Shown piece by piece: positions 10,101-34,256 of a DNA stretch of 64,000 nucleotides. Both the position numbers and the translations under genes were made by a program. Numbering within the stretch: position 1 is the first letter of the stretch; each line of letters starts with the position of its first letter. A model generated the notes under the pieces. That model was not told the DNA's origin, did not search any database, and saw nothing but the letters and a program-made list of their open reading frames with translations. Source of the stretch: Lytechinus pictus (Eukaryota); the NCBI RefSeq assembly GCF_037042905.1, contig NC_087252.1, forward strand, positions 5,892,001 to 5,956,000. The letters run 5' to 3'.

Positions 10101-13100
10101 ATCCGTGGAGCCTTGACAAAAAGCCCCGCAATTTGTATTGACGAAATTGTGATGATGATTTGACAGAGTTTGATAATCATCTTTCCAATCATCACAATTG
10201 ATTTGATCAGCAGAATTCATGATTATTTCGATTATTACTATGTTTCGTACTGGTTGCTCTTTTGTTATCTCTTTGAATTTCTATATTTTGCTCACCATCC
10301 TTTTTTTGTCTTCCATATTATTTTGTTTGTAGCCCCCCCCCCCCTGCCCACACACACACACACACACGCACAATGAATTCGCCATTAAAATAGAGCGAAA
10401 ACACGCACTGCATAATTTTCAATGGCGCATAAGTGAGACATATTCATAATATAAAATATGTATTATTTTTGTTTAAAACATCTCAAGTGTTTGTTATATT
10501 TTCAGTAAAATATAATTTTTTTGTTTTTTCAATACTTATTAATTAAACAAAATTGATAGTGAACGTGAGAGGAATGTTTATTGTTTAACTTCTAACTTTG
10601 ATGAGTTCATATTTGCATTACAAATTACTTTTCAGCCGAATGTTTCAATACATGCCCACCCAGTGACCGACCGTGACCCGGAGGAGACAAAGCATTGGGG
10701 GGCACAGCATTGTTCACAAACAATAAAGTGCCCCTCCAATGCTTTGTCTCCTACGGGTTACGGTCCGCTACTGTGCCCACCCCACCAATCTGCTTCCCTT
10801 AAGAAAACAAATGTTGCCTGGTAGATTCTAACCTATAAGAACTTAGCAATTCTAAACAACTCGTATGACTTTTCCTTATTTTCTCTGATTCTACAGCTCC
10901 CGTTGTTATCTACCCAAGATTAAAAGATGTTCACACAGGGGATGCAGGCCAACCCTTAACGTTAGAATGTAAGGCAAAGGGAAGTCCGCCCCCTACTGTT
11001 GAGTGGCTGTACAGGGGACTTCATTTGCTCAACGACTCGCACAGATTGGTAAACTTTTCATCTTACGATTGGATTCACTTTATTAAAGCTTAGTAAATGT
11101 AGCGAAGTGTAATATATCATTAACAATAAATACAATTTATATGTCTATTTTAATCATAATCAAGATTATAATTAGCTGTAGCCAGTTTGATAAAAGAAAA
11201 TGAAATCCCATAGCCAAAGTGTTTAGGCTACTTAAACTACGCGGGGACTAGTTCTTTATGATTTAGGTAAGGGCAACATGTGACTAAATTGACTTTGATA
11301 ATTGGTTAATTGCTCATTTTGATGTGTCAATTTACAATCTGAGGGAGAAGTTAGCAACAGGCGTTGTAAAGTGCCATTGTTGAAGGTGTAACGTTCGGAA
11401 AATAATAAAAGTTGATATAAGAACTTCATGCGATCGAGGTTGGAATGACAATAGCCGCAAATTGACAAATTGTTTGACCATGTTTTAGATCTCGGGAGGG
11501 ACTATAAAGTTTCGACGGCTGATTGCAAGGGATAGCGGCCATTACCTGTGCGTAGCGAGCAATAACATCACAGAAGCCAGGCAAGATATCAGAATCAAGG
11601 TCAATAGTAAGTATCCGTTGGTTTTTTAATGATGATAATAAAAAAACAAAAATTACCTTTTAAATCATTTCTAGGCACTTCTGAAAGTAAAAAAATCCCG
11701 AAAGGATGTGTTAGTGAGTTAATTTTATTAATTTGAGGTACATTTGAATATACAAGTATATTTCAAGATTTGTTTTGAACATGTCTACTGTATTAAACGT
11801 GATAGTACTAGAAACATCACCGCAACATTTGATATTGTATGCTCTTCATTCAATATCTCTTTGATAGATATTCGTCAACCATATCATTGCCGTGTCATCT
11901 GCTTGATAAAGTTGATCTTGATTGTGTACAGAACAACTAATCAATCAAATGTCGTCCGTTTCATAACATTGCCATTATCGTGGGGAACGTTTTGAGGGGG
12001 ACATGATGAAATTACTTCAAGCATTCTCATCGAAAATTGGTTTTCATGCCCACTTTTTTTTACTAATATTAACTCGAAGTCCTGTGAACAAAAAATATAG
12101 TTGGATATTTTATATTCTGTTGGCATCCCCAAAACAGAAAATGACTAGTAACTTCAACTTCCATATGAGCTTCTTTTTTTTCTTTCATTCTCCCCTGCCA
12201 CCTCATTCCTCCTTTTCTCTCACCTCTCCCTTCTCTCCCTTTATCTCACTTTAGGTGCACCTCCAATGCTAAATCTTAAACTGAAGCACTCGGGTCGATC
12301 AGTGACATTGGACTGGAACGTCGTTGGTAATGGTGGCTACCCTGTGACGAGTTTCAAATACGAATACAGAATGATATCACCGAAGACCGGTAAATGGTCC
12401 AGAGACAAGCTCCCTCCGAACATGGTAGGCATTATGTATTATTATACTATGGTGATATGGATCCTGATAAAATGATTAACTGAAGCGAATCACGTGACCA
12501 GTCATTAATCTGAGCTTAATGGGAAGTGTGATATGATCGATACTAACTACCTAGCTCTACTGACTGATAATGGTTTTGAGATGGGGATTGTTAGTCGAAT
12601 TATAAGGGTCCACACTACGATCTTACACTGCAAAAACTCTGGTGTTGATTTAACACCAGCCCGGAATGTATTTATGTCCACACCAGAGATCTTGTTAACA
12701 CCAGTTTCGTTTTGGTCTAACACCAGATTATTATTAAAACAACATCGGTTTGATTCCGAACTGGTGTTGTTTAAATACTTCTCTGCAGGGTGTGGACATA
12801 TATACATTCCGGGCTGGTGTTAAATCGGGGACATCCCGATAGACCGCGGGTCCGATAGACCGCGGGTCCGTTAGACCGCGGGTCCGATAGACCGCGGGTC
12901 CGTTAGACCGCGGGTCCGATAGACCGCGGGTCCGATAGTCCGCGGGTCCGATAGACCGCGGGTCCGATAGTCCGCAGTGTGTGTAAAATTATGATCAGAT
13001 ATATCAAATGTCATCGAGAGGTCCAAAGGTCAAATGATACGAGGCCATGGGGTTCTATCAGGTGCGGATCCATGGAGGGCCGAGGGGGAACTGCCTCACC

Positions 13101-16100
13101 CCCCCCCCCCCCACCCCCAGCTCAAAAAAAAAGAGGGGGGAAGAGGGGAAAAGGGAGAGAATTAAAAAAGAAAGAGGAAGATGGGAAAAGAAGAGAATAG
13201 AAAAGAGAGTAAGAAGGAGAAAGGAAGAGAAGAAAAAGGGGAAAGGAAAGACAAAGAAAAGAAGGGAGAAGAAAAGGGGAAAGAAGAGGGAAAAAAGAGG
13301 AGGGAAAAGGAAGAGAAGAAAAGAAAGGAGAAAGGAAAAGGAGGAAAAAGAAGAAAAAAAAAGAATATTTAAATAGAAAGGAAGATGGGAAGAAAGATAA
13401 GAAAAAAGAGAGAGAGAGGAAGAGGGGAAAAGAAGAGAAGAAAGAGAGAGAGGGAGGAAGGGGAGAGAGAGAAGAAAAAAGATTAAAAGATAAAAAAGGG
13501 AGAAGGAAAGAAAAGGAAAAAGGGAGAAGTAAAGGGGAAAAGAGAAAAAAAGTGGAAGAGGGAAAAGAAAGAAAAGAAAAGAACGGAGTAAGGAAAAGGG
13601 GGAAAAGAAGAAGAAAAAAGAGAGAGAGTAAGTGGGAAGAGAGGAAAAACGAGAAAAGAGAGAGGGAAAGAAAAGACAGCAAAAAGAGAAGAAAAGGGGG
13701 AAAGAAAAGATGGGGGAAAGAGAAGAAAGGGGGGAAAAGAAGAGGGGGAAAGAAAGAGAAAGGAAGGAAGGGGAATGAGGATAAAAGAAAGAAAAAAAAA
13801 AGAAAAGGAGATGGGAAACGGAAGAGGGAGATGTTGACCTGGACGTCGATTTGATGGCGCCAAAATGACGTTCGAACTATGGGGCGCCGAATTGATGTTC
13901 GATCTAGCGGGGCACCAAATTGATGTTCGAACTAGGGGAGCGCTAATTTGAATTTTGACCATAATGCGACAAATACATGTTTCAGAGAGGGGAGGGAGGG
14001 CAAAGTTATATTTCACATGATGGGGGCGCCAAGTTTATGTTCAACCGAGGGCGCCAAATTGACCTTGAACTTAGAGGGCTTCATGCAAATTCATTTTCGA
14101 CCGGGGACGCAACATTGCCTGTTTATAGTAAAATATATGTCCTGCCAAAATACTTCAATTAATGCGGCTGAATTAAAATATCCCGTTTTTACGATAACAG
14201 AAAAAAAAATGTTTTCGAGTTTTAAGTCTGTTTAGCGAGATAGATACCCTGTTCAGGGTCACAAAAAAGGGTTATTATTAAATTCAGCTCGCGCTACGCG
14301 CTCGCAATATTTGATTAATGAGGTATGCATCCTCTGCTTCAATCCCACATGTAAGTGTTAGTGTTTTTCAAGTCAACATACATAGGTCGATCCAGGGGGC
14401 AAAGATTTTGCCCCCCCCCCCATGGTGGCGCAAAAAGGGGTAAGAAACAGAAAAAAGGAAGAGAAAAGGACAAGCAATTAGAATAGGAATTATACCTTAG
14501 TCCTTCTTAAGTCAGTATATAAATACAGCCAATAGGCTGATATGTAGTTTAAAATATCAAGTTTTGATATCAATATACAAAACATAATTCAGCTCGGACA
14601 TCGATCTTTCATTATTTTGTTTTATTTACCAATTTATGTTTTAAGTGCTCTGGAAAATGTCCGTTTTATGGTTTGAATCAACATTTTGTGCGCTCGCACT
14701 ATATGCCAAGTAGGCCTACGTATTGTCTTTTTATATTTCATATAAGATTCTCTAAATATACCTTTTCAGGTGTCTCGATTGTAAAAAAAAATAATAAAGG
14801 CCTATGAGCTAGCGCTGTGCGCTCGCGTTTTGATTGGTGAGTTATGTATACCTATATATTAATTTTATAACAAACTACTTAAATCCCCCCATTAAAAAAA
14901 ATCCGGATCGCGATTTGCGCTCGCATTATTTGCTAAAAATATATCAACCAATGAATCCTATTCATGATTACAAAAATACCTAAATATCCAGTTTTCAGGC
15001 CTCATGCACTGTCAACAAATTTCACACACTCATTAGGCTTAACAGATTAATAAATATGAAATAAAATTTGTATAAATTCATTTTAACTAAATTGTCCCTT
15101 TTTCAGAAATAAATGTTTAGGAAAAGAAAGAGAAGATAGTCATCATTCTTATATGATGACAAAATGTCCTTAGGCCTAAAATGTCTCGATCCTAGGTCAA
15201 ATAAATAATAAAATATCAGCTCGCGCTTCGCGCTCGCATTATTTATATAGTGCTATCAAATTTCCCTATATACACAGTGCTGTAAACAGTGCTTAAATTG
15301 ACCCTTTTTATATCGGAATTTCAAATATTATTTTCAGCTCGGGCTCTGCGCTCGCATTATTGATTTTTATGATGAAAAATGAAATGTATTCAGATTGCCA
15401 GGATTCTGTCTAACTCTAAAACACGCGCACGCATGTTTTTAGGATACAAAGCTTGATCTTATTCAAAACGTGCTAAAATTATCCAGTTTCGAATCAGAAT
15501 ATCAAAACATGTTCAGCTCGCGCTTCGCGCTCGCATTATTTAATCGTTGAAATATGTATCGTCTTAATGGCTAACTGCAAAACATCCTTAACATGTTCCT
15601 TTTCGACCAGGCCAGAACGAATATTTAACATTTCTGCTCGGCTTCGCGCTCGTGGTAATTATCTAGTTACATACGCTGTTCAGGTTCACAAACATTGCCC
15701 AAAATGTTCAATTTTCAGGACAAAATACATGAAATTTCATTTTTAGATTACATAGGGCTTAAGAGATTATTACACATTTATGTTGCTTATAAAGTAAAGC
15801 TAGGAAATGACTGTTAGGACATGGGTGTTTTGCCCCCCCCCCCAAAAAAAAGAGAGAATCAAGACTAAGAAAAAATAGAGAGAAAATGTAAGGGATTATG
15901 ATGAAATATAATATTATTTTCAAAATATTATGTCAAAATCTATCACAACCTTGTATTTTTGTAATAAAAATGTCAGCATATTTGCTTGCTCGCTTCGCTC
16001 ACTGGCAACTTCTTATTAATTTTATGCGATACACCATATCGAGCCCCCTCGAAATTGTTGGCTCATTACGGCACTGGGACAACCCCTTCAAAGAAACAAA

Positions 16101-19100
16101 AACAAAATCAACTTTGAGCGGCCGATCGGGGAAAATATGGGTGAAAAATGGCCCCTCACCCTAATGGCGGAAGCTGGGTCCGCCCCTGACTTAGGCTTTC
16201 AGGATATAATACATGATAAATCTATAAAAAAAAAAAAAATCAGATCGCGCTTCGCGTTCTCATTATTTATTTAGGCCTTGTGAGATACCTCAATTTGTTT
16301 TTAAGAATGAAATATCAGATTTTCTTTGACGTCTACCCCCCCCCCATTTCATTAATTTTTTTAACTTGGTGCCCTCGCCACCCACCCCCCCCCCCCCGTG
16401 CACCCATGCTGAATAAATACGCCACTGATGAGGAGAATTAGTCGATTGCTTCGAGATTGCATTATTCCCAAGAGGTTATCATTAATATTATTGAAGGGTA
16501 TTCTAACACAACAGTACAGAAACTACAGCTCCCGTTCACAGAATATTCTAGTAGGGCCTACTCTGGTAAAAATTGAACCCCCCCCCAAAAAAAAAAAAAA
16601 AAAAAAAAAAAATCGCTCGTGCTTTGCGCTCCCATTGATATTACATTTTATATTCGTGGATTTTTTTTTCAAGAACACATGAAAAAGTGGTCTTTGGTTT
16701 TTTTTTAAATGTGATTATAAGATAATTCAAAATCCATTTAAGGCACTTTAGTTAGCCTGGCCGGGAGGGAGTGGGCGCCATTTTTCGAAAAGTACACATT
16801 ATGGGCGCCAAAAATCAGGTCAAATTTGCCCCCCCCCCCTCCCTCTCCACGAAATCCTGGATCCGCGCCTGGGTTCTATAACAATAACCCAATTAGGGCA
16901 ATCACCCCCTGACAACTACTTCAAGGAAAATATGATCCCCATATTTTTACCGGCGGGGACTGATACCCCCCCCCCCCGGAAATTTACCCTCCAGATAATT
17001 ACCCCGGATAATTACCCCTAGTATGGAGCCTTGAAAATGCCATTAACGCGACGACATGGCGTGGTACTTTATCTTGCCATGTCTTAATTAATCATTGGCG
17101 GCGGAAGGCAAAACAATTTAGGGGGGTCCACCTGAAATTTGGGATGGACACAGGTAAAAAAAATTGACAAGCAAATCAACTAAAATTTATAGGAAGGACC
17201 ACCAATTTTGAAAAAAATTTGACAAGAAAAAAAGGTTATAAACCAAAATTAGGGGGACAAATAGATTTTAGGGGGGGTCCACCTCAATTTAGGGGGGGAC
17301 GTAGAAAACAAATTGACAAGCAAAAAAAAAGGTTCTCAACTAAAAATCTAGGGGGGACCGTCCCCCCACCTCAAATTTAGGAGGAAAGGTCCCCCCCCCC
17401 CCCGCTTCCGCCGCCTAAGTAATTAATACGCTTATTATTTCGACATAGCGATATATTCTATCTTGTCAAGTCGATATGTCCACATGGCGAGATATGAAGT
17501 GTACAAGTCCCGGCGAGAATCCCGATATATCGCTATGTTGACATGTAACTTATTTAAGTCGACTTGGCAAGATAAAATATCTCGCCATGTTGACATATAA
17601 CTTTTTATAAGTGGACTGACTTGGCAGGATAACGTATCGCGCCATTATTTAGTCGACATGGCAAGATAAAGTATCTCGCCATGTCGTCAAGTCGATGGCT
17701 CCGTATGGCGTCTAGAGGGTAAATTTCCGGGGGGGGGGTAACAGTCCCTGACGATAAAATATGGGGATAATATTTTCCTTGAAGTAGATGTCAGGGGGCG
17801 ATTGTCCTTTGGGTCATCGTTATATAACCCCAATGGACTCGTATCATTGGCCTTTTGACCTCTTGATGGCATTGGATCTCACTATATCCTGACCATAATT
17901 TTACACACACCGCGGGCTATCGGACCCGCGGTCTATCGGACCCGCGGTCTATCGGACCCGCGGACTATCGGACCCGCGGTCTATCGGACCCGCGGTCTAT
18001 CGGACCCGCGGGCTATCGGACCCGCGGTCTATCGGACCCGCGGTCTATCGGGCTGTAACCGTTAAATCAACACCGGAGTTTTTGCAGTGTGTAAGACCTA
18101 TAATAGATATCGCTTTCATTATGCTGATAATGGCGGTAGTCCTGGAAGGAGTGGTGTTGTTTGTGTCCATGGTTATCATTATATCAGATGAAATTAAGTT
18201 ATACATTATTATTAACGAACATTTGGGGATGGAGATGGTGGTTTCGATGGTGAATTGGGGGAATTGTGACGAGTACGATAACAGATGATATAAAGACATT
18301 GGTTCAACCAATGTGATAATGCTGATGGTGAAGATGTTAACTCTGGTCTTAATAAGGTCCTTACAAAGACCAAATGTGCAAGTTCAAATTCTTTTCTTAG
18401 CTTTGTACATTCAGTAAAAGCAATAAAACGATACATTTCTTGTATTTCCTTCCCTTCAGAGATCGCACACAATCAAAGGGCTGAGATCTAACGCTACCTA
18501 TGAGCTAAAGATGTGGGCAAGCAACAAACTTGGTCAGGGAACTATTCTAAGACAGGTGTTTTCAACCGACTCATATGGTGAAGGTGGTAAGTTGTTTTCT
18601 GTTTCTGTTGAGGTAACTATCTTAGGATCTCGGCAAAGCAGCTTTCCGCTGCATCAACGCCAATATAGAATATAACCAATTTTATGAAACGTTTTACGTC
18701 CAGGTTAATCAGTCATAGTGGCTGATCGATATAGACTACAAAAATACCATTGGGCCTTTTTTTTTTTAGTTGAAATAATAGCAGAGCTGTGATTTGGACT
18801 CACAATTTTCCAATGATGAGTCCAAAGCTCTAATTACTAGACCACACGACCCTGTTTAATGACCATTCGTACTCCGCCTTAAATATTGTAAAGGGGAATG
18901 AAGCCTTACTATCAAATTAGTAGCAAATTATATTTGTGAAAACAGAAAAGCCAAATAAAAGATCAATAAACAAATTTCATAATAGGTCACGCGATGTGAT
19001 ATTCATTAGGAGGGTATAAATTGAAAGTGGTTTTGGTGAGAAACCGTGAGAAGGTTCCAATTTCAGTTCTTCTTATTTGTTGAATTAGTACACGTTTATG

Positions 19101-22100
19101 TATTTAAAAAAAAAACCGAAGATGTTTTTTGACAGTTTTGATTAGACCCATATATTTTTTTTTTGATGGGGGATTATTTCGCTTTTTTTCTGAAAAGCAA
19201 AATGTTCTCCTTAATTTGAACTCCTATAGGTTAGAGAACTATTGAAGGTTTTTCATTGATACTTTTCTCCAATCAAGAACAGGATGTGCCTAATTAGTGT
19301 GACAAATTTGAAGTTAATCTAATGACCCCTTCTAGGATAATTAGAACGAGTTATAATCCTCCTTTTGTCACCTTGCATAACAGTGTGAGGGAAATGTGTG
19401 CTCTCATAGAATAGAGTCGGGTTCCGCCAATCTGACCCTAGAGTAAACGTATTCAGTTAAGGATAACATGTAACAGGATAACACCAAGCTATTATTATTT
19501 CACTTTTTATGTATTTTTTTGCCCAGGATTAGGTAACATGTTCAGCGGTCTGTCCGAGGATAACTAAGATCGATTATTACATCGTATCATTTCATTCTAC
19601 CTTTTTTCCGTCCAGGTCTCGGTAACATTTTAAGTGGTCTTTCCGATGATAATCTAAGATTGGTACACATCGGTGTAGAGGCTCAGTTTGTAGAGCCTCC
19701 GCCTCACAACCGGGAGGTCGGGAGTTCAAGCAAGGTCAATATGACGCTTCTCAGTGGCTGCCGGGGCCACGATTGATTGGGGAAAATATAATTACGGAGA
19801 ATTTCTGTTTCTGATTTTTATTTCGAACTTTTTCTGTAAGGCCTCAGTAACATTTTCAGCGGTCTGTCCGTGGTTAGCCTAAAATTGATATACATCGTAT
19901 CATTTCATTCTATTTCTTCGTTCAGGTCTCAGAAATTTTTTTTGCGGTCTGTCCGAGGATAATCTAAAATTGATATACATCGTATCATTTCATTCAACTT
20001 GTTTCGTCCTTGGGCCCGTTTTATATAAACATCTTTTTTTTTTCCTCAAAATCCATATTTTATTGTTCGAAATAGACACCAGAAATGAAATACTCTGAAA
20101 ATTTGTTTTTCCCCGTGGGCCTGGCAGCCGCTGTGCAGCGCCAGATCGACAAGGCTCTATCCCTTTAATTGTTGAACGCCAAACAGGGTAGCAGCAACTC
20201 CCATCCTTTAACGTCTTTTGATCTGACGCGGCCGGGGTTTGAACCCCGACTTCCCGGTTGTGAGACGGACGCTCTACCAACTGAGCCAACACACCACATA
20301 GGACTTGCAACTGTTGTAACTTTGCCACAGTAACAGCGTTCAGGGGCCAATCATAATCAAGTTTTCCATGGTAGTTGTCACAATAGCACAGTTGCAAGTC
20401 CTTTATGAAACGGGCCCCAGGTCTCGTTAACATTTTTCAGCGGCCTGTCCTAGGATAACCTAAAATTGATATGCCTCGTATTATTTCATTCTCATTTTTT
20501 TCGTTTCAAGTCTCGGTAACATTTTCAGTGGGTCTGTCTGACGACAAACTAAGATTGATATACATCGTATCATTTCATTTAACTTGTTTTCGTCAAAGTC
20601 TCAGTAACATTTTCAGTGGTCTATCCGAAGATAATATAAAATTGATATATATATCGGTGTATTGAGTCAGTTGTAGAGCTTCCGCCTCACAACCGCGAGG
20701 TGGGGAGTTCAAACTCCCGCCGTGCAAGACCCCAAAAATGGGAGTTGGTGATAATTCCTGGGCATTCAACGATTTAAGGCATAGATCAACGTCGCGACGT
20801 TGCTCTATGTCTCGTCGATCTGACGCTGCTCAGTGGCTGCCGGGGCCGCTTGATTGGGCAAAGTTAAATTTCGGAGGAATACTATATCTATTTCTGATCT
20901 TTATTTCGATATATTTTTCTTCAAGGCCTCAGTAACAACTTCAGTGATCTGTCCGAGGATAATTTAGAATTGATATAATTATACATCGTAATATTTCATT
21001 CAGCTTTTTTCATCCAGGTCTCAGTAACATTTTCAGCGGTCTGTCCGAGTAATTTAAGATTGATATATATCGTGTCGTTTTATTCTACTTTTTCGGCCAG
21101 GTCTTAGTAACATCTTCAGCGGTCTGTCCGAGGATAATCTAAGATTGATATTCATCGTGTCGTTTTATTCTACTTGTTCGTCTAGGTCTCAGTAACATCT
21201 TCAGCGGTCTGTCCGAGGATAATCTAAGATTGATATTCATCGTGTCGTTTTATTCTACTTTTTCGGCCAGGTCTTAGTAACATCTTCAGCGGTATGTCCG
21301 AGGATAATCTAAGATTGATCTATATCGGAGCGGGTGTGGCTGGTGGTCTGTTTCTTCTCATCCTGGTGGTGGTCTTTGCTATCGCTTGCAAACGTAAACC
21401 AGATCCAGCAGGAATCAGAAGTGAGTCAATTGGCAATGCGGTTCCCAGGGTTACAATTCAATACAAATCTTTCCCAAGTTTTCGCCAGACAGGTTAGAAT
21501 GTTGATGATAACAAGTGACGCATGCAAATGAGTAAACTAAATTTCCACCCATGCCGTCAGTCTATTATAAAAGAGATGATTAGTATGATAGGATGATAAA
21601 ATACCAAGCAGAAAGACAATTCTATGAGGATTTACTGTGCACTGTTGTCCCTATCTGTTACGGGATATTCTCTCCGAAATAAGAAACAAAAAATACCGAT
21701 GAGGTAAGTAAATGCATTACCATGATTACGGGGATAGACATTCTTTCAATCTTCGGAAACGTACTTGTCGGCCCCAATTAGGGTGAACATGACCAACTGC
21801 ATAGTAACTCCAGCTCCAGGAGGGGGGGGGGGGTGTCAACAAACTCGAGCTAAATATAAATGTCAAGAAATATTCGGCATGTTTCTGAAACTCCTTTGTG
21901 ATACTGTATTGGAAACATTATTTTGCTCTTATGTTTATTATCACTCTACTTATAGAACGAGCAGATGGTATAGAGGATGGCGAAGCCCTGGTCGACGGCT
22001 TCCACGAGTCGCCGTCCCACATTAATCCAGCTTACGGTGGATCAGACAATATTACAAGCGAGAATCTTGAACTACAGGATGTGAATCCCTCAGATAGCAA

Positions 22101-22179
22101 CGGAATCACTGATAAAAATGGAAAACCTATCGCCGGTACTTCCGACGCCAATGGAACAGCAAATGACTCTGGTCTATAA
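1018..22179 (+). CDS. Ig-superfamily type I membrane adhesion receptor (>=5 Ig, 1 FN3, TM, NPxY tail); 5' end lies upstream of the window
   Basis: 13 exons joined in frame by GT-AG introns: 1018-1110, 3480-3607, 6169-6346, 6951-7075, 7956-8112, 8962-9124, 9825-9976, 10897-11048, 11489-11606, 12255-12424, 18460-18586, 21271-21420, 21956-22179. Ig motifs (CxxxGxPxPxxxW; DxGxYxC), FN3 (VTLDW...YEY...IKGLRSNATYELKMWASNKLG), TM (LIYIGAGVAGGLFLLILVVVFAIAC), tail ends INPAY...DSGL*. Architecture resembles nephrin/echinoid/NCAM-like proteins; orthology not determinable by eye. Confidence 0.9.
1817..2264. mobile_element. MITE-like element containing a LINE/SINE 3' tail
   Basis: Ends ggggtgttgcaagaaa / tttttgcaatgcccc; related short copy at ~3683-3818; internal agcgcttagagac...gcgctatataaat(tat)n tail at 1928-1992. 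Confidence 0.5.
2316..2479. mobile_element. Palindromic MITE
   Basis: ~57-bp inverted repeats taccttggtcacatttgctctacggcggccgtacggc... / ...gccgtacggccgccgtagaacaaatgtgaccgaggta, flanked by ttta/ttaa. Confidence 0.85.
3480..3607 (+). CDS. Gene 1 exon: N-terminal half of an Ig domain
   Basis: tag|WPLRFVEIPPSVLDMAEGQNISVQCNVTGFPHARILWYKINGS|gtgagt. Confidence 0.85.
6169..6346 (+). CDS. Gene 1 exon: C-terminal half of an Ig domain
   Basis: cag|DSEQIS...LNVSDNGMYRCEATN...LVVH|gtaag. Confidence 0.88.
6951..7075 (+). CDS. Gene 1 exon: N-terminal half of an Ig domain
   Basis: tag|APPRITSVHPAIRTVHVGMEVVFECSATGFPPPKFTWFMNER|gtaagt. Confidence 0.88.
7956..8112 (+). CDS. Gene 1 exon: C-terminal half of an Ig domain
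   Basis: aag|AIPRIG...LTIDRVIEADAGNYTCQAFN...LDVF|gtaagt. Confidence 0.88.
8439..8608. mobile_element. hAT-type MITE
   Basis: TIR cattagcgtaccta / taggtacgccactg; 8-bp TSD gttatata/gttacata. Confidence 0.75.
8962..9124 (+). CDS. Gene 1 exon: N-terminal half of an Ig domain
   Basis: aag|GIYFRERAPPVVAVEEGNSTELVCDVGG...IEWFKNR...|gtaaat, phase 1-2. Confidence 0.8.
9825..9976 (+). CDS. Gene 1 exon: C-terminal half of an Ig domain
   Basis: tag|LPRCKYMIMNNTLTILRVSQRDLGTYVCRAT...VLFA|gtcagt. Confidence 0.85.
10661..10773. mobile_element. Palindromic hAT-type MITE
   Basis: CAG...CTG termini, near-perfect hairpin, exact 8-bp TSD tgcccacc (10653-10660, 10774-10781). Confidence 0.88.
10897..11048 (+). 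CDS. Gene 1 exon: N-terminal half of an Ig domain
   Basis: cag|APVVIYPRL...LTLECKAKGSPPPTVEWLYRG...HRL|gtaaac. Confidence 0.88.
11489..11606 (+). CDS. Gene 1 exon: C-terminal half of an Ig domain
   Basis: tag|ISGGTIKFRRLIARDSGHYLCVASNNITEARQDIRIKVN|gtaagt. Confidence 0.85.
12255..12424 (+). CDS. Gene 1 exon: N-terminal half of FN3 domain
   Basis: tag|SAPPMLNLKLKHSGRSVTLDWNVVGNGGYPVTSFKYEYR...PPNM|gtaggc. Confidence 0.87.
13059..16871. mobile_element. Non-autonomous hAT-like element nested in the foldback arm
   Basis: TIR caggtgcggatcca / tggatccgcgcctg; exact 8-bp TSD ggttctat (13051-13058, 16872-16879). Confidence 0.85.
13120..13832 (+). repeat. Polypurine (GA-rich) low-complexity tract
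   Basis: ~700 bp almost exclusively A/G on the + strand. Confidence 0.95.
17093..17419. mobile_element. hAT-type MITE nested in the foldback centre
   Basis: TIR cattggcggcggaag / cttccgccgcctaag; 8-bp TSD taattaat (17085-17092, 17420-17427). Confidence 0.82.
18460..18586 (+). CDS. Gene 1 exon: C-terminal half of FN3 domain
   Basis: cag|RSHTIKGLRSNATYELKMWASNKLGQGTILRQVFSTDSYGEG|gtaagt. Confidence 0.87.
19672..19827 (+). mobile_element. tRNA-derived SINE, internally deleted
   Basis: Box A-like ggctcagtttg, box B-like gagttcaag; same family as 20656 and 20295. Confidence 0.75.
20011..20418. mobile_element. MITE (gggcccgtttcataaag TIR family) containing a SINE
   Basis: Ends tgggcccgttttata / tttatgaaacgggcccc; inserted between the pyrimidine tract and the AG of array copy 5. 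Confidence 0.7.
20050..20295 (-). mobile_element. tRNA-derived SINE (tRNA-Val-like head)
   Basis: Reverse strand ggtgtgttggctcagttggtagagcgtccgtctcacaaccgggaagtcggggttcaaacccc followed by a non-tRNA body. Confidence 0.85.
20656..20910 (+). mobile_element. tRNA-derived SINE
   Basis: gagtcagttgtagagcttccgcctcacaaccgcgaggtggggagttcaaactc plus body homologous to 20050-20295. Confidence 0.8.
21271..21420 (+). CDS. Gene 1 transmembrane exon
   Basis: cag|GLSNIFSGMSEDNLRLIYIGAGVAGGLFLLILVVVFAIACKRKPDPAGIR|gtgagt, phase 1-1. Confidence 0.88.
21956..22179 (+). CDS. Gene 1 last coding exon (cytoplasmic tail)
   Basis: tag|KRADGIEDGEALVDGFHESPSHINPAYGGSD...NDSGL TAA. Confidence 0.82.
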
Positions 22180-28361: not shown

Positions 28362-31300
28362 GTAAGTATAGCTCGACCCGATCTGTCTATAGTCGATAAT
28401 TGATTAATAGACGATGATTCGACACACCAAATGCTTCCCAAAAAGGCATTTTAAGATAGATATTACTTGCCGGATGCGAAAAGCGGCCTATGACCTTTAT
28501 GGCAAAATTTCCATGCATTCTTACTTACATGCATAACTATTTTTCATTTATGTCTCTACAAATCCATGCTATAGCGTAGCATTCCCAGTAAAAATATCGG
28601 ATATTTTTCTATGTCTATTAATTTCTATGCAATTAAACCTGAAATATTTAATATATTAGTGCATCAGTTAATTGTCAATGCATCAACAACATGGAACATG
28701 AAGAATTAGATTAAGTTTCATTTTTATAATCAGTCATTACAACTAACAGCTGAATATTATCCAAACTATTATTGAGGACAATTATGGACAGGGTAAGATT
28801 CTTAATCATATGTATTTCACTCGCCATCTTGTTATGTTAATCTAGGTAATGGGCAGCAGGCCTTTTCCATCCAGCCCGAAGCGACGTTTGACCTTAACAT
28901 CGGCGACTCTGTTTTAATGTTGTGCTCCGTAACGGACAAGGAAGGGGTTGTCACATGGGTCAAGGACGGAACCACGGCACTCTCCAACGAGCGAACCATC
29001 ATCAGTTCAGAGAATGAAGCTAGGTTTGCTGTCACAGGAGACGATCCCAGCGGGAGCTTCAATCTTCAAATAACGGATCTGGTTGAAAGCGACTCGGGGA
29101 TTTACCAATGTCGAGTATCAGCATCAGGCTCAAGCGAAGCCCTTACGTCGACGGATGCCCAGCTTACAGTCACACGTAAGTATTTGGTCCAATTTCGGCA
29201 CAAATTTTTAAGGGATTTCTAATGCAGTATGATTCATTTGGCTTTAGAGCTTCACAATATAGAACTCATAATCTAATCAAAATGCACGTGTGGTTTGCAT
29301 GGGGACTATCAATTTATTCTGATCGCCTTTAATTATTTTCTATAATTCATGTTGGCATTCTTAATATTCGTCTCCTCCTTCGCCACCACATTCCATATCG
29401 GAAGTTTCGCATCGTAATATCACACTCGTAATGTTTTTTTATTCCTTAATCACAGCGATTCCTGTCCAGACATTTACTTCACAACCCACTGAAGCACAGG
29501 GCATCATTGGTAATGCTGTCACACTACCATGCGTCGTCGAAAACAAGGAGGGCAACCTGGAGTGGCTTAAAGATGGCACCGCTATCAGCAACGACTCGGA
29601 GATTACAGACACGAGTCTCACTCGTTACAACATCGTCGGTTCTGCATCTGCTGGCGAGTACAACCTCCAGATTGTTACTCTTGAGAACGCTGACATGGGG
29701 ACGTACGTATGCCGCGTTGCTGCCGCCGGTAACAGTCCCGCTATCACGTCAACAGAAGCCGTTCTGACTATTCGGGATTCCAGCGAGATACAGAGTATTG
29801 TGATCCCACCCTCGGCTACTTCAGCTACTGTAGGTACATCAGCTTCCATGGTGTGTTACGTGTCAGCTAAAGCAGGGTCTGTGCTTTGGATCAAAGATGG
29901 TGTCCAGATCAGCAGGGACAGGGATCTAGTCAACGGGGATTCTAGGTAAGTTATCACTCAAAGGATAGCAAAAATGCACACACACATGCACATAAGCAAG
30001 AGTACTGATGTTAAAACATGAATATTGAATGGCCTTCACTCCGACATAAATTATTTAGTCCATAGTACGTAGCAGATAGGAATGATTTGTTTCTGTTCCC
30101 CCTCTCTAATAACGGCAACGTCTCCCTCTTTTCTATTTTGCAGCGGGCGCATTACCATTGCAGGAACCGACGAGGAGGGCTTGTATGAACTTCGATTTAG
30201 CACAGTTGAGGAGGACGACGAAGGTGTCTATTTCTGTGTTATCACAGCAGAGGGTGATCAAGCAGCCGTTTCATCATCTCCGGCTAGTTTCACTGTAACA
30301 GGTATGCATCGTGCTGTGTACAAAATAATAAATCATTAATTTTCCTACGTCTAGAGTAAGCTTTTGTTCAAGCGTTATGCTTTAACGCCTGATTTGCTTG
30401 ATTCAGTGTAACACATTTATCACTGCATTTCAGCCGGTTGATAAATTTGAGAACAGCTTAATGATTTCTATCTGCCCAAGGGAACACAACTCCCCTATCA
30501 CCCCATGAACATAAACGCCATAATGTTTTCCTAATTTGAATACGATTCTTCACTCCTTTCTTTAGCTGCTATTGAACCGAACACCGCCTCCCCAGAATGC
30601 TCCTTGACACCCGCAAGTATCCTCAGCGAGGGCGATGTGGTAACAATCAAATGCGAGTCCACAGGTGGTTCCCCTCAACCAACATTGACCTGGTCAAACG
30701 ATCTCGATCCTAACGCTTTCTCTGGAAACCAAACGGACGAGGAATCAAGTGCATCCAACTCGATCACCTTCTCGCTTACCAAGGAGCTAAGCGGTGTCGT
30801 ATATACCTGCAGATCCACGCATCCGGCGTATAGCGAACCAAAGGAATGTTCGCTGCCTGCACTCTCTTTTGACTGTAAGTTATCAACTGATCAACAGAGC
30901 GATCTCTCTCTGCACGTGACAACCATTCAGTCGTTTCAATGTTCTAGAAATCAATTTTCCTACCAATCAATCTATCAACCATTTGATTGTGTTTTTCTTG
31001 TTTTCTCACACAATGTAGAAATCAATGAGGCATTTAATTAACAATCGATATGATTATCATCAAATTTGTCCCAAAGTAACAGGAAATCAATTTAGTCAAT
31101 GAAGGCTTTTGTCAAGGAACTATTTAATTGAGCTTTGAAATATGTATATCAATTGAAAAGTCATCTTTCATTGTCAGTTCGCATTTTTGTGAATATTCAA
31201 CTTCAATAGTCTAATTTACGTTTGTTTGTGTCGTATGCAGTGATTGCAACAATCAATGTTACCGCCCAAACGACTCGACTGACCATCGAGGAGGATAAAC

Positions 31301-34256
31301 CTGGAGAAATCATATGCAGTGCTTCAGGAGACCCGGTTGTCCTAGGGTACAGATGGTATTACAATGGAGCTGAGATAGAGGCCACCGATGACAGGTAACA
31401 ATTCCTGCACTGACCTTGATCCATCATTATTTGCATCCTGGTATAATTTTCAAAATGTTGTTTGGATGATTCGGCGGAATCCTTCCATAGTTTCCCCGAG
31501 TACATGAAGAAGGGTTTGTTCCTTGTCTGAGTTCTGGTCCTTTAACTCCGCATTTGATCTTGCACACACAATGATAATAATAAAAAAGACATCGGCCAGT
31601 CTGTTTTAAATTAAAGTTGCTCCGGTTTCGAAAATAATCCATGACTATATAGTGACACTCATAATTTTTTTTTTAAAGTTTTTTTTTTGCACTTTATCAT
31701 TTCAATGTCTATTGCGTTAGAAGTTTAGAGTTAAACATCATGGGATTAGATATTGTGCAGTACTCCTTGTGTACCTACACTTCCAATCAGGGTATCCTTA
31801 AAAGAACCTATAAACAATTCCTAGTTGAAATACGGGTATAGGATAATGGGACATTGACATCGATGCCATAAATACTGGATTAAGGTTGGTATGGACGATA
31901 GGGCAATATTGAACAGCTAAGGCAGAGTAATACTATAATAATTATTCTGATTTGTTCTTTATCCAGGTTTGTAATTGAAACAACCAATGGCAAGGACGCT
32001 TCTACGCTGACCATATCAAGTGCCACTCTCAGCATGGACGATTCCACAGTACAGTGCGAGGCCTACAACCGTATTGACCAAAGGCGTACGAGTATTGTCC
32101 TGACTATCAAAGGTACGAGGCTTTTTTCGCAAGGTCCTTTCAACATTCCCTTCCCCCTCTCTCTCTTTCACAGAGATTATTAATCAGATAGGCTAGAGTT
32201 TGCATAGGCAGTTAAATGTATATATATTCTACATATAACACATATTCCGTGTTAATATCTTCCAGACGAATTTTAAGAGGAATATTCAATGATGATTTTT
32301 GTTTTACTTGTACAATTCATCGCGTACTGAACGTTGCGTTAGTTTATTATTCAACATGTTTAATCTACACATGATACTCGCGTGTTACCATACTCAATTT
32401 GGGTAATCTGGGATGTTGCTGTTGTGTTTAAACATCTTTAAGAAATATTTGTGTTTCTTATATCTTTCGTCCTGTCCGTTTAATCATGATATTTGGACGT
32501 ATATGACGTTTCACTGTCAACTATGATCACCGAATTGCTTCTTGATTTTTTTTCTGTAAATCGAATTAATTGTTTTTCTTGTTTGATTTTGAATAAAATG
32601 TTTCTCTACCAAACAGAAGTATGATCACCGGATTGAATATATTTCATTCATTTGTTTATCTCTTTATTTCACAGAGGATAACTTGACGACATACGTGCTT
32701 GCTGCCCTCGGTCTCATTGCAACGATCATCTTTGTGGCCATCGTTATCGGTTTTATTGTCTGGGTCTGTCACCGAATGAATAAGAAAAAACGAACAAGTA
32801 AGTTTCAACCAAGTGATTTTCCTTGCCACAATACCTTAATCAATAACAGGCGATTTTGGATAAACTTGCGAATTTTATTGTTGGATTTCGAGCAAAGCTT
32901 ACATTCATTAGAAGGTTGAAATACGTATTAGAGGAATAATCGTCACATTGGCTGGATATTGTGAGGTCCCCGCTGAACCCTCCCATGATACCAGCAAATG
33001 AAATTGATATTGGTATATGGTGGGGATTTAACGAAACTATTAATAAAAACTAGTGTTCTTCATGAAAAACCGTGTAATAATCAGAATTTACTTAAAAGGG
33101 TGATTATAATTTTGAAGGGATATCAGCAATGGCATTTAGGTTATGTCTACTTCAGACGAAATCAAAGTTGAATTGTGTACTAAGTATTTCTTTTTTCGTT
33201 TTCTTTCCAGTTCATCCAGATCCTGAAGCCGGTGGAATGACTAAAGGAATCCCCAACAGGAACTTCTTCATCGGAGCCACCCACATGGATGGCCTACCAA
33301 ACGGTGACATCAAAGCAGAAGTTACTGACGAAAAGAAGAAGCACAAGAAACACAGGAAGCACAAGAAGGACAAGAAAGACAAGAAGGATAAGAAGCACAA
33401 GAAGGACAAGTCAAAGGTCCTAGAGCACGACTCTACAAGGGCACCCAACCCGCTCAGTACACGAGATGGTGATCATGATGTCCTGCCAACCATTACTGGC
33501 TACAGGAGACCTGGTACAAATAGTCGTGACCCCGGTGTCTACCCGACATACCCTCCTATGTACCCAATCGATGGACACTCGCCACTTCCTCACTATCAAG
33601 ATGGCTACCCTGCGGCTGATCCTGACTCAGCTCCTAGGTCAAGTCGAAGAGATTCCAAGGACAAGTCGGGTCAAAATGGAAAGATCTCGCTGTCTCCAGG
33701 AGAGTACCAGAAGAGAGACGAATACGAGAGGAAATTAAGAGAACTTCAAGGGCTCAGGTCGGATCTAGCTGCGCCTGAGCCAGAGAAAAAGAAGAAGAAG
33801 CACAAGAAGCACAAGAAAGATGTAAATATTTCTTTTACGATTTCCTCACAATTGCGATAGGTTATCCGCCTGAATATCTGAATGACCTTTCATTCAAATA
33901 TAAGGAATATATCTAGGGAACATTTACAATCATTTTCTTTTTTTCTCTTATTCTTATAATGTGCTAATGATGTATGATATAATCATTATCACTACTATTA
34001 TAAGCATTATGTAAACGAATTAAGATTAGTATAGTAATAAATTGGTAGAGGAGTAGAGCTATAAGTCGTGATAAAGTCCTCTGGAATATAATATCCGATT
34101 AAAATTTAAATAAATTATACCAAATTATCCAACGTTACCCAATTTTACTTACGTTTTCATAACTGAAGTTTACCTTAAAAATGTCTTAATGAATTCAGAA
34201 ATAAATTATACTTAATTTCCTTTCTTTTCTTCCTTGATTCCTTTCAGAAATCTTAG
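28304..34256 (+). CDS. Kirre/Neph/nephrin-like 5-Ig type I membrane protein, ~795 aa
   Basis: 10 in-frame exons: 28304-28361 (signal peptide MIRLRLIVVVSMMMYTANH), 28846-29175, 29456-29945, 30144-30301, 30566-30874, 31241-31394, 31967-32112, 32675-32797 (TM), 33211-33821, 34248-34256 (KS*). Ig1-3 show CxVxxKxGxxxWxKDG...Y/FxL...DxGxYxC, typical of Kirre/nephrin domain 1. Confidence 0.9.
28846..29175 (+). CDS. Gene 2 exon: Ig1
   Basis: QQAFSIQPEATFDLNIGDSVLMLCSV...WVKDG...DSGIYQCRV. Confidence 0.9.
29456..29945 (+). CDS. Gene 2 exon: Ig2 and first half of Ig3
   Basis: ORF 29431-29949; VTLPCVVENKEGNLEWLKDG...DMGTYVCRV...MVCYVSAKAGSVLWIKDG. Confidence 0.9.
30144..30301 (+). CDS. Gene 2 exon: second half of Ig3
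   Basis: GRITIAG...YELRFSTVEEDDEGVYFCVI. Confidence 0.88.
30566..30874 (+). CDS. Gene 2 exon: Ig4 (C2/CD80-like)
   Basis: VTIKCESTGGSPQPTLTW...VVYTCRSTHPA. Confidence 0.9.
31241..31394 (+). CDS. Gene 2 exon: first half of Ig5
   Basis: LTIEEDKPGEIICSASGDPVVLGYRWYYNG. Confidence 0.87.
31967..32112 (+). CDS. Gene 2 exon: second half of Ig5
   Basis: FVIETTNGKDASTLTISSATLSMDDSTVQCEAYNRID. Confidence 0.87.
32675..32797 (+). CDS. Gene 2 transmembrane exon
   Basis: EDNLTTYVLAALGLIATIIFVAIVIGFIVWVCHRMNKKKRT. Confidence 0.9.
33211..33821 (+). CDS. Gene 2 cytoplasmic exon
   Basis: Strong acceptor ttctttccag; open frame with K/H/D tracts and Tyr/Pro-rich segment; donor gtaaat leads to final micro-exon 34248-34256 (AAA TCT TAG). 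Confidence 0.85.

Follow-up and report, generated by a model that had tools for sequence, protein, structure and literature searches.

A boundary-spanning tandem array of 3' splice-site copies before the transmembrane exon of a Lytechinus pictus adhesion gene, probably neutral

Dscam-type arrays consist of tandemly duplicated exons that are spliced in a mutually exclusive manner. A different kind of duplication, in which the repeated unit takes in a splice junction, is described for human F7: intron 7 (IVS7) carries a 37-base-pair (bp) variable number tandem repeat (VNTR) whose first unit spans the exon 7/intron 7 boundary and whose identical pseudo-donors are silent, as minigene experiments showed (Borensztajn et al. 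2006, PMC1557585). Decoy exons and decoy splice sites are reported to promote intron retention (PMC6097662, PMC7373989), and introns are reported to be gained or to slide when an AGGT-containing segment is duplicated in tandem (PMC2891723). The subject here is a stretch of 64,000 nucleotides (nt) of the Lytechinus pictus genome (NC_087252.1, positions 5,892,001 to 5,956,000 of the forward strand; "the window" in what follows), in which the end of an intron and the start of the transmembrane (TM) exon that follows it, in a gene for an adhesion protein, are present in 12 tandem copies. A literature search, with subscription journals outside its coverage, found no acceptor-side equivalent of the F7 array.

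The array is probably a neutral, decaying, boundary-spanning minisatellite whose last unit serves as the real acceptor and whose upstream units are rarely if ever used, their transcripts being prone to nonsense-mediated decay (NMD). It constitutes a natural experiment in 3' splice-site choice: 11 pseudo-acceptors lie upstream, and the mRNA that is seen still uses the last site. Copy 10 is the same as the real site over 56 nt that take in branch-region motifs, pyrimidine tract and AG, and on one allele of the TM exon (C at 21294) the difference begins at least 50 nt downstream. Exon definition can thereby be set against local site strength and first-come-first-served choice, a question made testable in a tractable embryo. 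(The F7 minisatellite is the same natural test for donor sites.)

Host gene and architecture of the array

The gene was identified from stop-to-stop open reading frames (ORFs) and a protein search with the TM exon, and by its domain content it encodes an immunoglobulin (Ig)/FN3/TM adhesion protein. Pfam assigns Ig_3 (258 bits) and I-set (243 bits) to five stretches each; the FN3 domain is sub-threshold (FN3_DSCAM-DSCAML_C 28.4 bits, cut-off 39; fn3 23.8 bits, cut-off 25), and the sequence itself shows the TM stretch, GAGVAGGLFLLILVVVFAIAC. Public names are "cell adhesion molecule DSCAM-like" (L. pictus), "hemicentin-1-like" (L. variegatus), "hemicentin-1" (S. purpuratus) and "protein turtle homolog B-like" (Diadema). 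The coding exons of the window match the L. pictus model P0009 (isoform X2) letter for letter over residues 188-832, and mapping of this protein onto the genome gives 12 exact GT..AG introns, 18586/21271 and 21420/21956 among them. (Here and below, a slash marks a splice junction.) The exons that flank the array, and the TM exon itself, are as follows.

18460..18586, + strand: last ectodomain (FN3) exon; donor GTG/GTAAGT at 18586, ends in phase 1 (P0009 mapping; joints in reads and contigs)
21271..21420, + strand: real TM exon, 150 nt; stalk GLSNIFSGMSEDNLRLIYI, TM helix, stop-transfer KRK; donor GAA/GTGAGT at 21420
21421..21492, + strand: optional 72-nt extension of the TM exon (ORF 21234..21497; alignment of isoforms X1 and X2)
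21956..22179, + strand: last coding exon, with cytoplasmic tail and stop (ORF, P0009 mapping, joint 21420/21956)

Between 19490 and 21330, in the intron before the TM exon, a unit of 85-89 bp is present in 12 copies on the same strand. Each unit contains ~28-30 nt of intron end (pyrimidine tract and AG) followed by the first ~55 nt of the TM exon, and yUnAy-like motifs resembling branch points can be made out by eye in its intron part. When the last unit is compared with the 64-kb window by blastn, 12 + strand matches are returned between 19505 and 21330 (E values 5e-9 to 3e-37; upstream copies 77-95.5% identical to the last); outside the array, nothing in the window matches it better than E 0.05. 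The repeats are head-to-tail and lie inside an intron, as the 12 collinear copies and Tandem Repeats Finder (TRF) agree: the latter reports period 85 with 4.7 copies at 20914-21319 and period 89 with 2.6 copies at 20421-20649. The individual copies, with the start of the blastn match, the position of the AG and identity to the last copy, are these.

Copy 1, + strand: start 19505, AG 19525, 82%
Copy 2, + strand: start 19580, AG 19614, 79%
Copy 3, + strand: start 19827, AG 19839, 80%
Copy 4, + strand: start 19893, AG 19924, 80%
Copy 5, + strand: start 20417, AG 20419, 81%
Copy 6, + strand: start 20497, AG 20509, 77%
Copy 7, + strand: start 20563, AG 20597, 79%
Copy 8, + strand: start 20914, AG 20924, 80%
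Copy 9, + strand: start 21006, AG 21016, 87%
Copy 10, + strand: start 21069, AG 21099, 95.5%
Copy 11, + strand: start 21151, AG 21184, 91%
Copy 12, + strand: start 21236, AG 21269, 100%

Unit 12 (21236-21325) spans the real junction at 21270/21271, and homology of the repeat with the TM exon stops near 21325. In the species' own 812-Mb genome the unit is confined to this locus (7 of 7 matches at C8:5911533-5913330), and it is therefore a local duplication; origin from a dispersed repeat or transposon is ruled out by the same search. The direction of the duplication can also be read. The start of the TM exon is found once each in the S. purpuratus and Diadema orthologues, as the motif G(L/I)(S/G)N(I/L)F.GLSE(D/E)NL(R/K)LIYIGAGVAGG, so that the exon start is ancestral and the array is derived from it. 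The real exon of this assembly reads GLSNIFSGMSEDN, with M and not L, since 21294 (position +24 of the exon) is A here and polymorphic, A or C, in reads.

The AG is kept in all 12 copies, off by 1 nt in copies 6 and 7, and the pyrimidine (Y) fraction of the tract preceding it is 0.71-0.88 in 11 of them, which is comparable to the range of the gene's 12 real acceptors (0.59-0.94). Copy 10 equals copy 12 from -32 to +23, and with the C allele at 21294 identity reaches +49. Copy 11 differs from the real acceptor at -3, -5, -10 and +5; the older copies are 77-87% identical. The array thus contains pseudo-sites identical (copy 10) or nearly identical (copy 11) to the authentic one and, because copies 10 and 12 are identical over the range just given, local 3' splice-site sequence cannot explain the choice of copy 12 over copy 10. 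An earlier, sequence-only reading of this DNA had proposed just such a set of 12 copies of acceptor and exon start, with an 85-bp period in the last ones and upstream copies that form complete acceptor modules, two of them almost identical to the real one; the alignments confirm it on each of these points. The motif of its exon-start peptide stands, and L has to be replaced by M for this assembly.

The copies are arranged in blocks that are interrupted by short interspersed elements (SINEs).

19490..20011, + strand: block A, made up of copies 1 and 2 (AG 19525, 19614), SINE 1, copies 3 and 4 (AG 19839, 19924) and a partial unit
19663..19826, + strand: SINE 1, tRNA-derived; it lies at the end of copy 2, and its place within the unit matches that of SINE 3 (alignment)
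20012..20417, - strand: composite insertion immediately upstream of the copy-5 AG, with ends GGGCCCGTTT / AAACGGGCCC (by eye)
20419..20480, + strand: copy 5, AG 20419-20420, with the insertion in place of its pyrimidine tract
20480..21100, + strand: block B, made up of copies 6 and 7 (AG 20509, 20597, 1-nt shift), SINE 3 (~20655-20913) and copies 8 and 9 (AG 20924, 21016)
21069..21270, + strand: copies 10 and 11 (AG 21099-21100 and 21184-21185, period 85) and the ~35 nt with which the intron ends in unit 12, the real AG (21269-21270) included

Copies 1, 2, SINE, 3 and 4 are collinear with copies 6, 7, SINE, 8 and 9 at 82% identity, and thus form a higher-order repeat. The SINE shared by the two blocks has at least 1198 first-look candidates genome-wide. 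The composite insertion contains a young and abundant SINE of ~250 bp (20045-20296; at least 3465 first-look candidates, with 39 scored full-length copies on other contigs 90-93% identical), whose tRNA-Val-like head at 20223-20296 is called by ARAGORN and by Rfam tRNA (42 bits). It leaves copy 5 with a Y fraction of 0.53 and three AGs within 36 nt upstream. Copies 10-12 are 91-98% identical among themselves, and are presumably the youngest or have been homogenised. The arrangement suggests that a tRNA-derived SINE inserted into a pre-existing array and that a block of ~0.5-1 kb was duplicated afterwards. This co-duplicated SINE provides a yardstick: identity of block A to block B is 83.5% (187/224) for the pseudo-exons, 83.0% (112/135) for the SINE and 75.4% (86/114) for the intron ends. 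By that measure the old copies have no conservation signal beyond that of a transposon relic, and the older pseudo-exons, diverging as fast as the SINE that was duplicated with them, point to neutrality.

As a separate observation, the SINE heads at 19672-19722, 20245-20295 and 20673-20705 are inverted relative to one another, with complementarity of 86% over 51 nt and of 85% over 33 nt; in pre-mRNA they could pair, looping out copies 3-4 or 5-7.

The array is real. Units of 85 bp that are nearly identical are hard to assemble, and the sequence-only reading had named an assembly artefact as one way in which it could fail, yet such an artefact is scarcely credible: independent RNA-derived contigs of other runs match 19667-19908, 20394-21098, 20734-21072 and 21184-21293 with 0-1 mismatches (fitting copies 3, 5-9 and 11-12), the copies are diverged and broken up by insertions, and the annotation of a second species, L. 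variegatus, implies at least two copies.

Predicted products and observed junctions

With the phase-1 donor at 18586, splicing to any of the 11 upstream acceptors leads to an early stop, and copy 12 alone enters the TM helix. The predicted peptides end, each at a stop codon, as GLGNMFSGLSEDN for copy 1, GLSNIFSGLSE for copy 9, ...LIFIVSFYSTCSSRSQ for copy 10 and ...LIFIVSFYSTFSARS for copy 11. The stops lie between 143 nt (copy 11) and 1853 nt (copy 1) before the 21420/21956 junction. By the 50-nt rule, stops further upstream of the last junction mark an mRNA as an NMD substrate; because these are at least 143 nt from it, transcripts from all 11 upstream acceptors are predicted NMD targets. 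Neither a poly(A) site of its own nor a stop in the last exon, either of which would let an alternative mRNA escape NMD, was found. A motif scan locates no AATAAA or ATTAAA between 18966 and 21420, and hence none in the array; polyadenylation within the array is ruled out on motif grounds, the only AATAAA sites being at 18954 and 18965, upstream of it. The translations given by the sequence-only reading for copies 1, 9, 10 and 11, and its claim that only the last copy (21271) continues into the TM helix, are reproduced. Polyadenylation inside the array, which it proposed to look for, fails for the reason just given, and its GPI-like anchor is ruled out by the tail of the annotated isoform X3 (described below), where ~8 hydrophobic residues are followed by polar STCSSRSQ.

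The two AATAAA sites are situated ~370 nt into the intron that follows the FN3 exon, where RNA cover is 0-3.6. Read-through of the 18586 donor would close the ORF after ...GEGGKLFSVSVEVTILGSRQSSFPLHQRQYRI, a conceivable soluble form that does not involve the array.

Other roles for the units were considered and rejected. They are not mutually exclusive mini-exons, having no donor and a period, 85 bp, that is not a multiple of 3. No credible donor is found in the units (the best, TCG/GTGTAG and CGT/GTCGTT, are poor next to the gene's own donors), and they do not qualify as decoy exons. Recursive splice sites are likewise ruled out: the site regenerated after splicing, GTG/GTCTYA in 7 of the 12 copies, fits the consensus only at -1, +1 and +2, and the other 5 have no GT there.

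Junction use was followed in three raw-read runs depleted of ribosomal RNA and carrying the same species label (X21, X22 and X23; ~6% of each read) and in five contig runs (X1, X2, X3, X4 and X18; these are run labels, distinct from the isoform names). All five listed raw junction reads from donor 18586 go to 21271 (four in run X22, one in X23, none in X21), and the four of run X22 extend to 21332, past the repeated part. The 18586/21271 joint is present in all five contig runs at depths of 11.7-52.1, as is 21420/21956, and in three of them (X3, X4, X18) a single unbranched contig joins FN3 exon, TM exon and last exon. No joint from 18586 to copies 1-11 is listed in the three raw and five contig runs, joints with fewer than three reads being left unlisted. 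Across copies 8-11 (20846-21247) each of the three raw runs has a depth of 0, as against 0.69-2.87 in the exon bin; uncovered intron parts in the contig runs were not counted as evidence. Of the junctions to alternative acceptors that the sequence-only reading foresaw, 0 are thus listed for copies 1-11, at low power.

Two contig runs contain more than the spliced form. The TM-exon contig has a depth of 42.7 in run X1 and 25.9 in run X2, against 12.8 and 11.7 for the contig of FN3 exon and canonical junction. Contigs continuous with the array and reaching the exon are found in run X2 at 21184-21293 (depth 14.2; 11.7 + 14.2 = 25.9) and 20734-21072 (depth 6.2), and in run X1 at 20394-21098 (depth 13.5). 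The FN3-exon junction contig is unbranched at the donor and the downstream intron of run X2 is nearly uncovered (0 in two bins, ~4 in the last), and thus 2 of the 5 contig runs hold RNA that has array copies, TM exon and last exon, apparently without the FN3 exon. Such RNA could begin at an internal start, or it could consist of 3' pieces of pre-mRNA not yet spliced; contigs measure depth poorly, and the observation serves as a lead only.

Three further observations concern the same RNA. All four run X22 reads combine three allelic differences in the TM exon, namely 21294 A>C (Met to Leu), 21329 A>G and 21332 G>A; 21294 C restores the letter of the upstream copies, and contigs of run X1 carry the reference A. 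Isoform X1 implies a second donor after 21492 (CAG/GTTAGA), which adds 24 amino acids, SESIGNAVPRVTIQYKSFPSFRQT, in the cytoplasmic juxtamembrane region; no joints from 21492 are listed in the reads and contigs examined, all of which use 21420, as does isoform X2. In all three raw runs a stretch of ~40 nt of the intron, 18686-18725, has very high RNA depth, mostly antisense, and is flanked by loose ends on either side; it resembles a piece of some abundant RNA or repeat that is encoded elsewhere.

Competing explanations

How such an array might have arisen and stayed silent can be outlined. A first duplication would have taken in the last ~28-30 nt of the intron and the first ~55 nt of the exon, and repeated slippage or unequal-crossover duplications would have produced the 11 upstream copies as neutral by-products; later duplications, in blocks of one unit to ~1 kb, would include one that followed the landing of a SINE in the array. 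Copy 12 would be preferred as the sole copy contiguous with the exon body and nearest to the downstream donor at 21420, that is, by exon definition. Splicing to copy 10 would lengthen the mRNA by 170 nt and splicing to copy 11 by 85 nt; either would break the frame and expose the mRNA to removal by NMD, so that no stable soluble protein would be made, and the upstream copies would be weak decoy acceptors at most. That they are decaying is suggested by the early stop after each of the 11, the loss of the pyrimidine tract of copy 5 to an insertion and the shifted AG of copies 6 and 7.

A number of observations weigh against a neutral, decaying array. The RNA evidence has low power, with five junction reads and joints of fewer than three reads unlisted; rare forms are dropped from contigs, and NMD would deplete and hide isoforms with premature stops. 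A few sense-strand raw reads do lie over copies 5-7 (depth 0.2-1.75), and the array-continuous contigs of runs X1 and X2 enter the TM exon at a depth at least that of the spliced form. The AG persists in all 12 copies in spite of ~20% divergence. Finally, the newer L. pictus annotation contains an isoform X3 (P0005, 739 amino acids) whose end, ...GEGGLSNIFSGLSEDNLRLIFIVSFYSTCSSRSQ, is the copy-10 product letter for letter, its C-terminus ...LRLIFIVSFYSTCSSRSQ being exactly what the copy-10 acceptor would yield. Isoform X3 of L. variegatus (P0008) ends ...GLSNIFAGLSKDNLRLIYIVSFYSTFFQVSVTSSPV, as if an upstream copy were likewise read through into the unit that follows it, and this implies that the species has at least two units with the same boundary. 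Isoform models of this sort are normally made from RNA alignments, and some low-level use of upstream copies may be real and common to the two species.

Isoform X3 is what the main alternatives turn on. If the acceptors competed in vivo, they would yield a TM-less, soluble or weakly anchored ectodomain, expected to end ...VSFYSTCSSRSQ, and array length would set the ratio of membrane to soluble protein, as the sequence-only reading had proposed. The X3 models of two Lytechinus species do end as use of an upstream copy predicts, every copy has its AG and copy 10 is indistinguishable from the real site between -32 and +23; yet every junction seen uses 21271, the products are predicted NMD targets with no poly(A) signal in the array to rescue them, the older copies evolve like the SINE, and the X3 tails are not conserved (STCSSRSQ in L. 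pictus, STFFQVSVTSSPV in L. variegatus). Moreover, the older L. pictus annotation has isoforms X1 and X2 only, and no X3-like form is found among the S. purpuratus or Diadema cluster members. Such competition is quite unlikely. The complete acceptor modules and the ends of the X3 models agree with what had been proposed; a regulated membrane/secreted switch is unsupported. A bolder version is a long shot: it sees in the array a heritable store of complete 3' splice-site modules, tunable by copy number, that sends a set share of transcripts to a TM-less or NMD-destined form (isoform X3) and has been kept since before L. pictus and L. variegatus split; if true, array length would set receptor dosage or the supply of a soluble ectodomain made without shedding, and the array would be a functional acceptor-side counterpart of the F7 VNTR. 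The opposite view, that the upstream copies are never used and isoform X3 is an annotation artefact of short-overhang junction reads, is itself unlikely. It draws on the identity of copies 10 and 12 for 23 nt past the AG (49 nt in 21294-C animals): on a reference with A at 21294, C-allele reads with 24-49 nt of overhang fit copy 10 better than the real site, and all four run X22 reads carry C. Isoform X3 appears only in the newer annotation, which carries the M allele, and is absent from the older one, whose proteins have the L allele, and the canonical junction alone is seen. Set against this is the X3 model of L. variegatus, where the upstream copy has K for E within its first 31 nt. A search of short proteins (30-405 amino acids) for the X3 tail gave two candidates, neither of which scored, hence no independent transcript-derived ORF. 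For annotation the caution is plain: in two RefSeq annotations, the support for isoform X3 may come from junction reads unable to tell repeat copies apart.

A last alternative takes the array for a bank of decoy 3' splice sites that slow removal of the intron and give rise to retained-intron or intron-initiated RNAs, in the manner of decoy-exon regulation. [quoted passage not shown] It is nonetheless very improbable: contig depths are poor measures, the intron is uncovered in runs X3, X4 and X18, the units have no credible donor (and so make no decoy exons) and show no conservation signal, and the extra RNA seems to be without the FN3 exon, as would sooner be expected of an internal start or of 3' fragments than of a retained intron.

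The rest of the window and related systems

Elsewhere in the window, a 16-bp tandem repeat (8.9 copies, 96% matches by TRF) with open frames GLSDPRSIGPAVYRTR occupies 17910-18051 and is related to a stretch at 12734-12988 on the minus strand; the two are probably a dispersed satellite or part of a transposon present in two introns of the gene. At 13038-13931 the long intron has ~0.9 kb of purine-rich low-complexity sequence, whose long frames are rich in K, E, R and G on the + strand and in S, F and L on the - strand. A second Ig-domain gene, with several Ig-like exon ORFs, lies ~6.6 kb downstream (28806-32183, + strand).

Set beside the described systems, the array resembles Dscam-type arrays in that exon sequence is tandemly copied within an adhesion gene of the Ig superfamily, one indeed annotated as DSCAM-like. 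It differs in repeating only the first ~55 nt of an exon, with no donor and a period of 85 bp that is not a multiple of 3, so that the copies are not interchangeable. Decoy exons are likewise non-productive intronic sites that could engage the splicing machinery, and array-containing RNA does occur in two of the five contig runs; but decoy exons have both acceptor and donor and are conserved, whereas these units lack a credible donor and are conserved no more than a SINE. As in AGGT duplication, the tandem duplication is at an AG/GT junction (7 of the 12 units read AG/GT); here no new intron has resulted, and the regenerated donor remains the poor match to consensus already noted.

The likeness to the F7 VNTR goes furthest. 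In both, a splice junction falls within the boundary unit, identical pseudo-sites flank the authentic site on its intron side, and the copy that is contiguous with the body of the exon is the one seen in use in normal mRNA. In F7 it is the donor that is repeated, downstream of the real site; here an acceptor module (branch region, pyrimidine tract and AG) is repeated upstream. The units are 85-89 bp long and number 12, with higher-order blocks, SINE insertions and mostly diverged copies, and any silence of the pseudo-sites is judged from sparse RNA-seq, with X3 models annotated, where that of F7 was shown by minigenes. By analogy, the array is the acceptor-side mirror image of the F7 VNTR as there described: larger, older and more structured.

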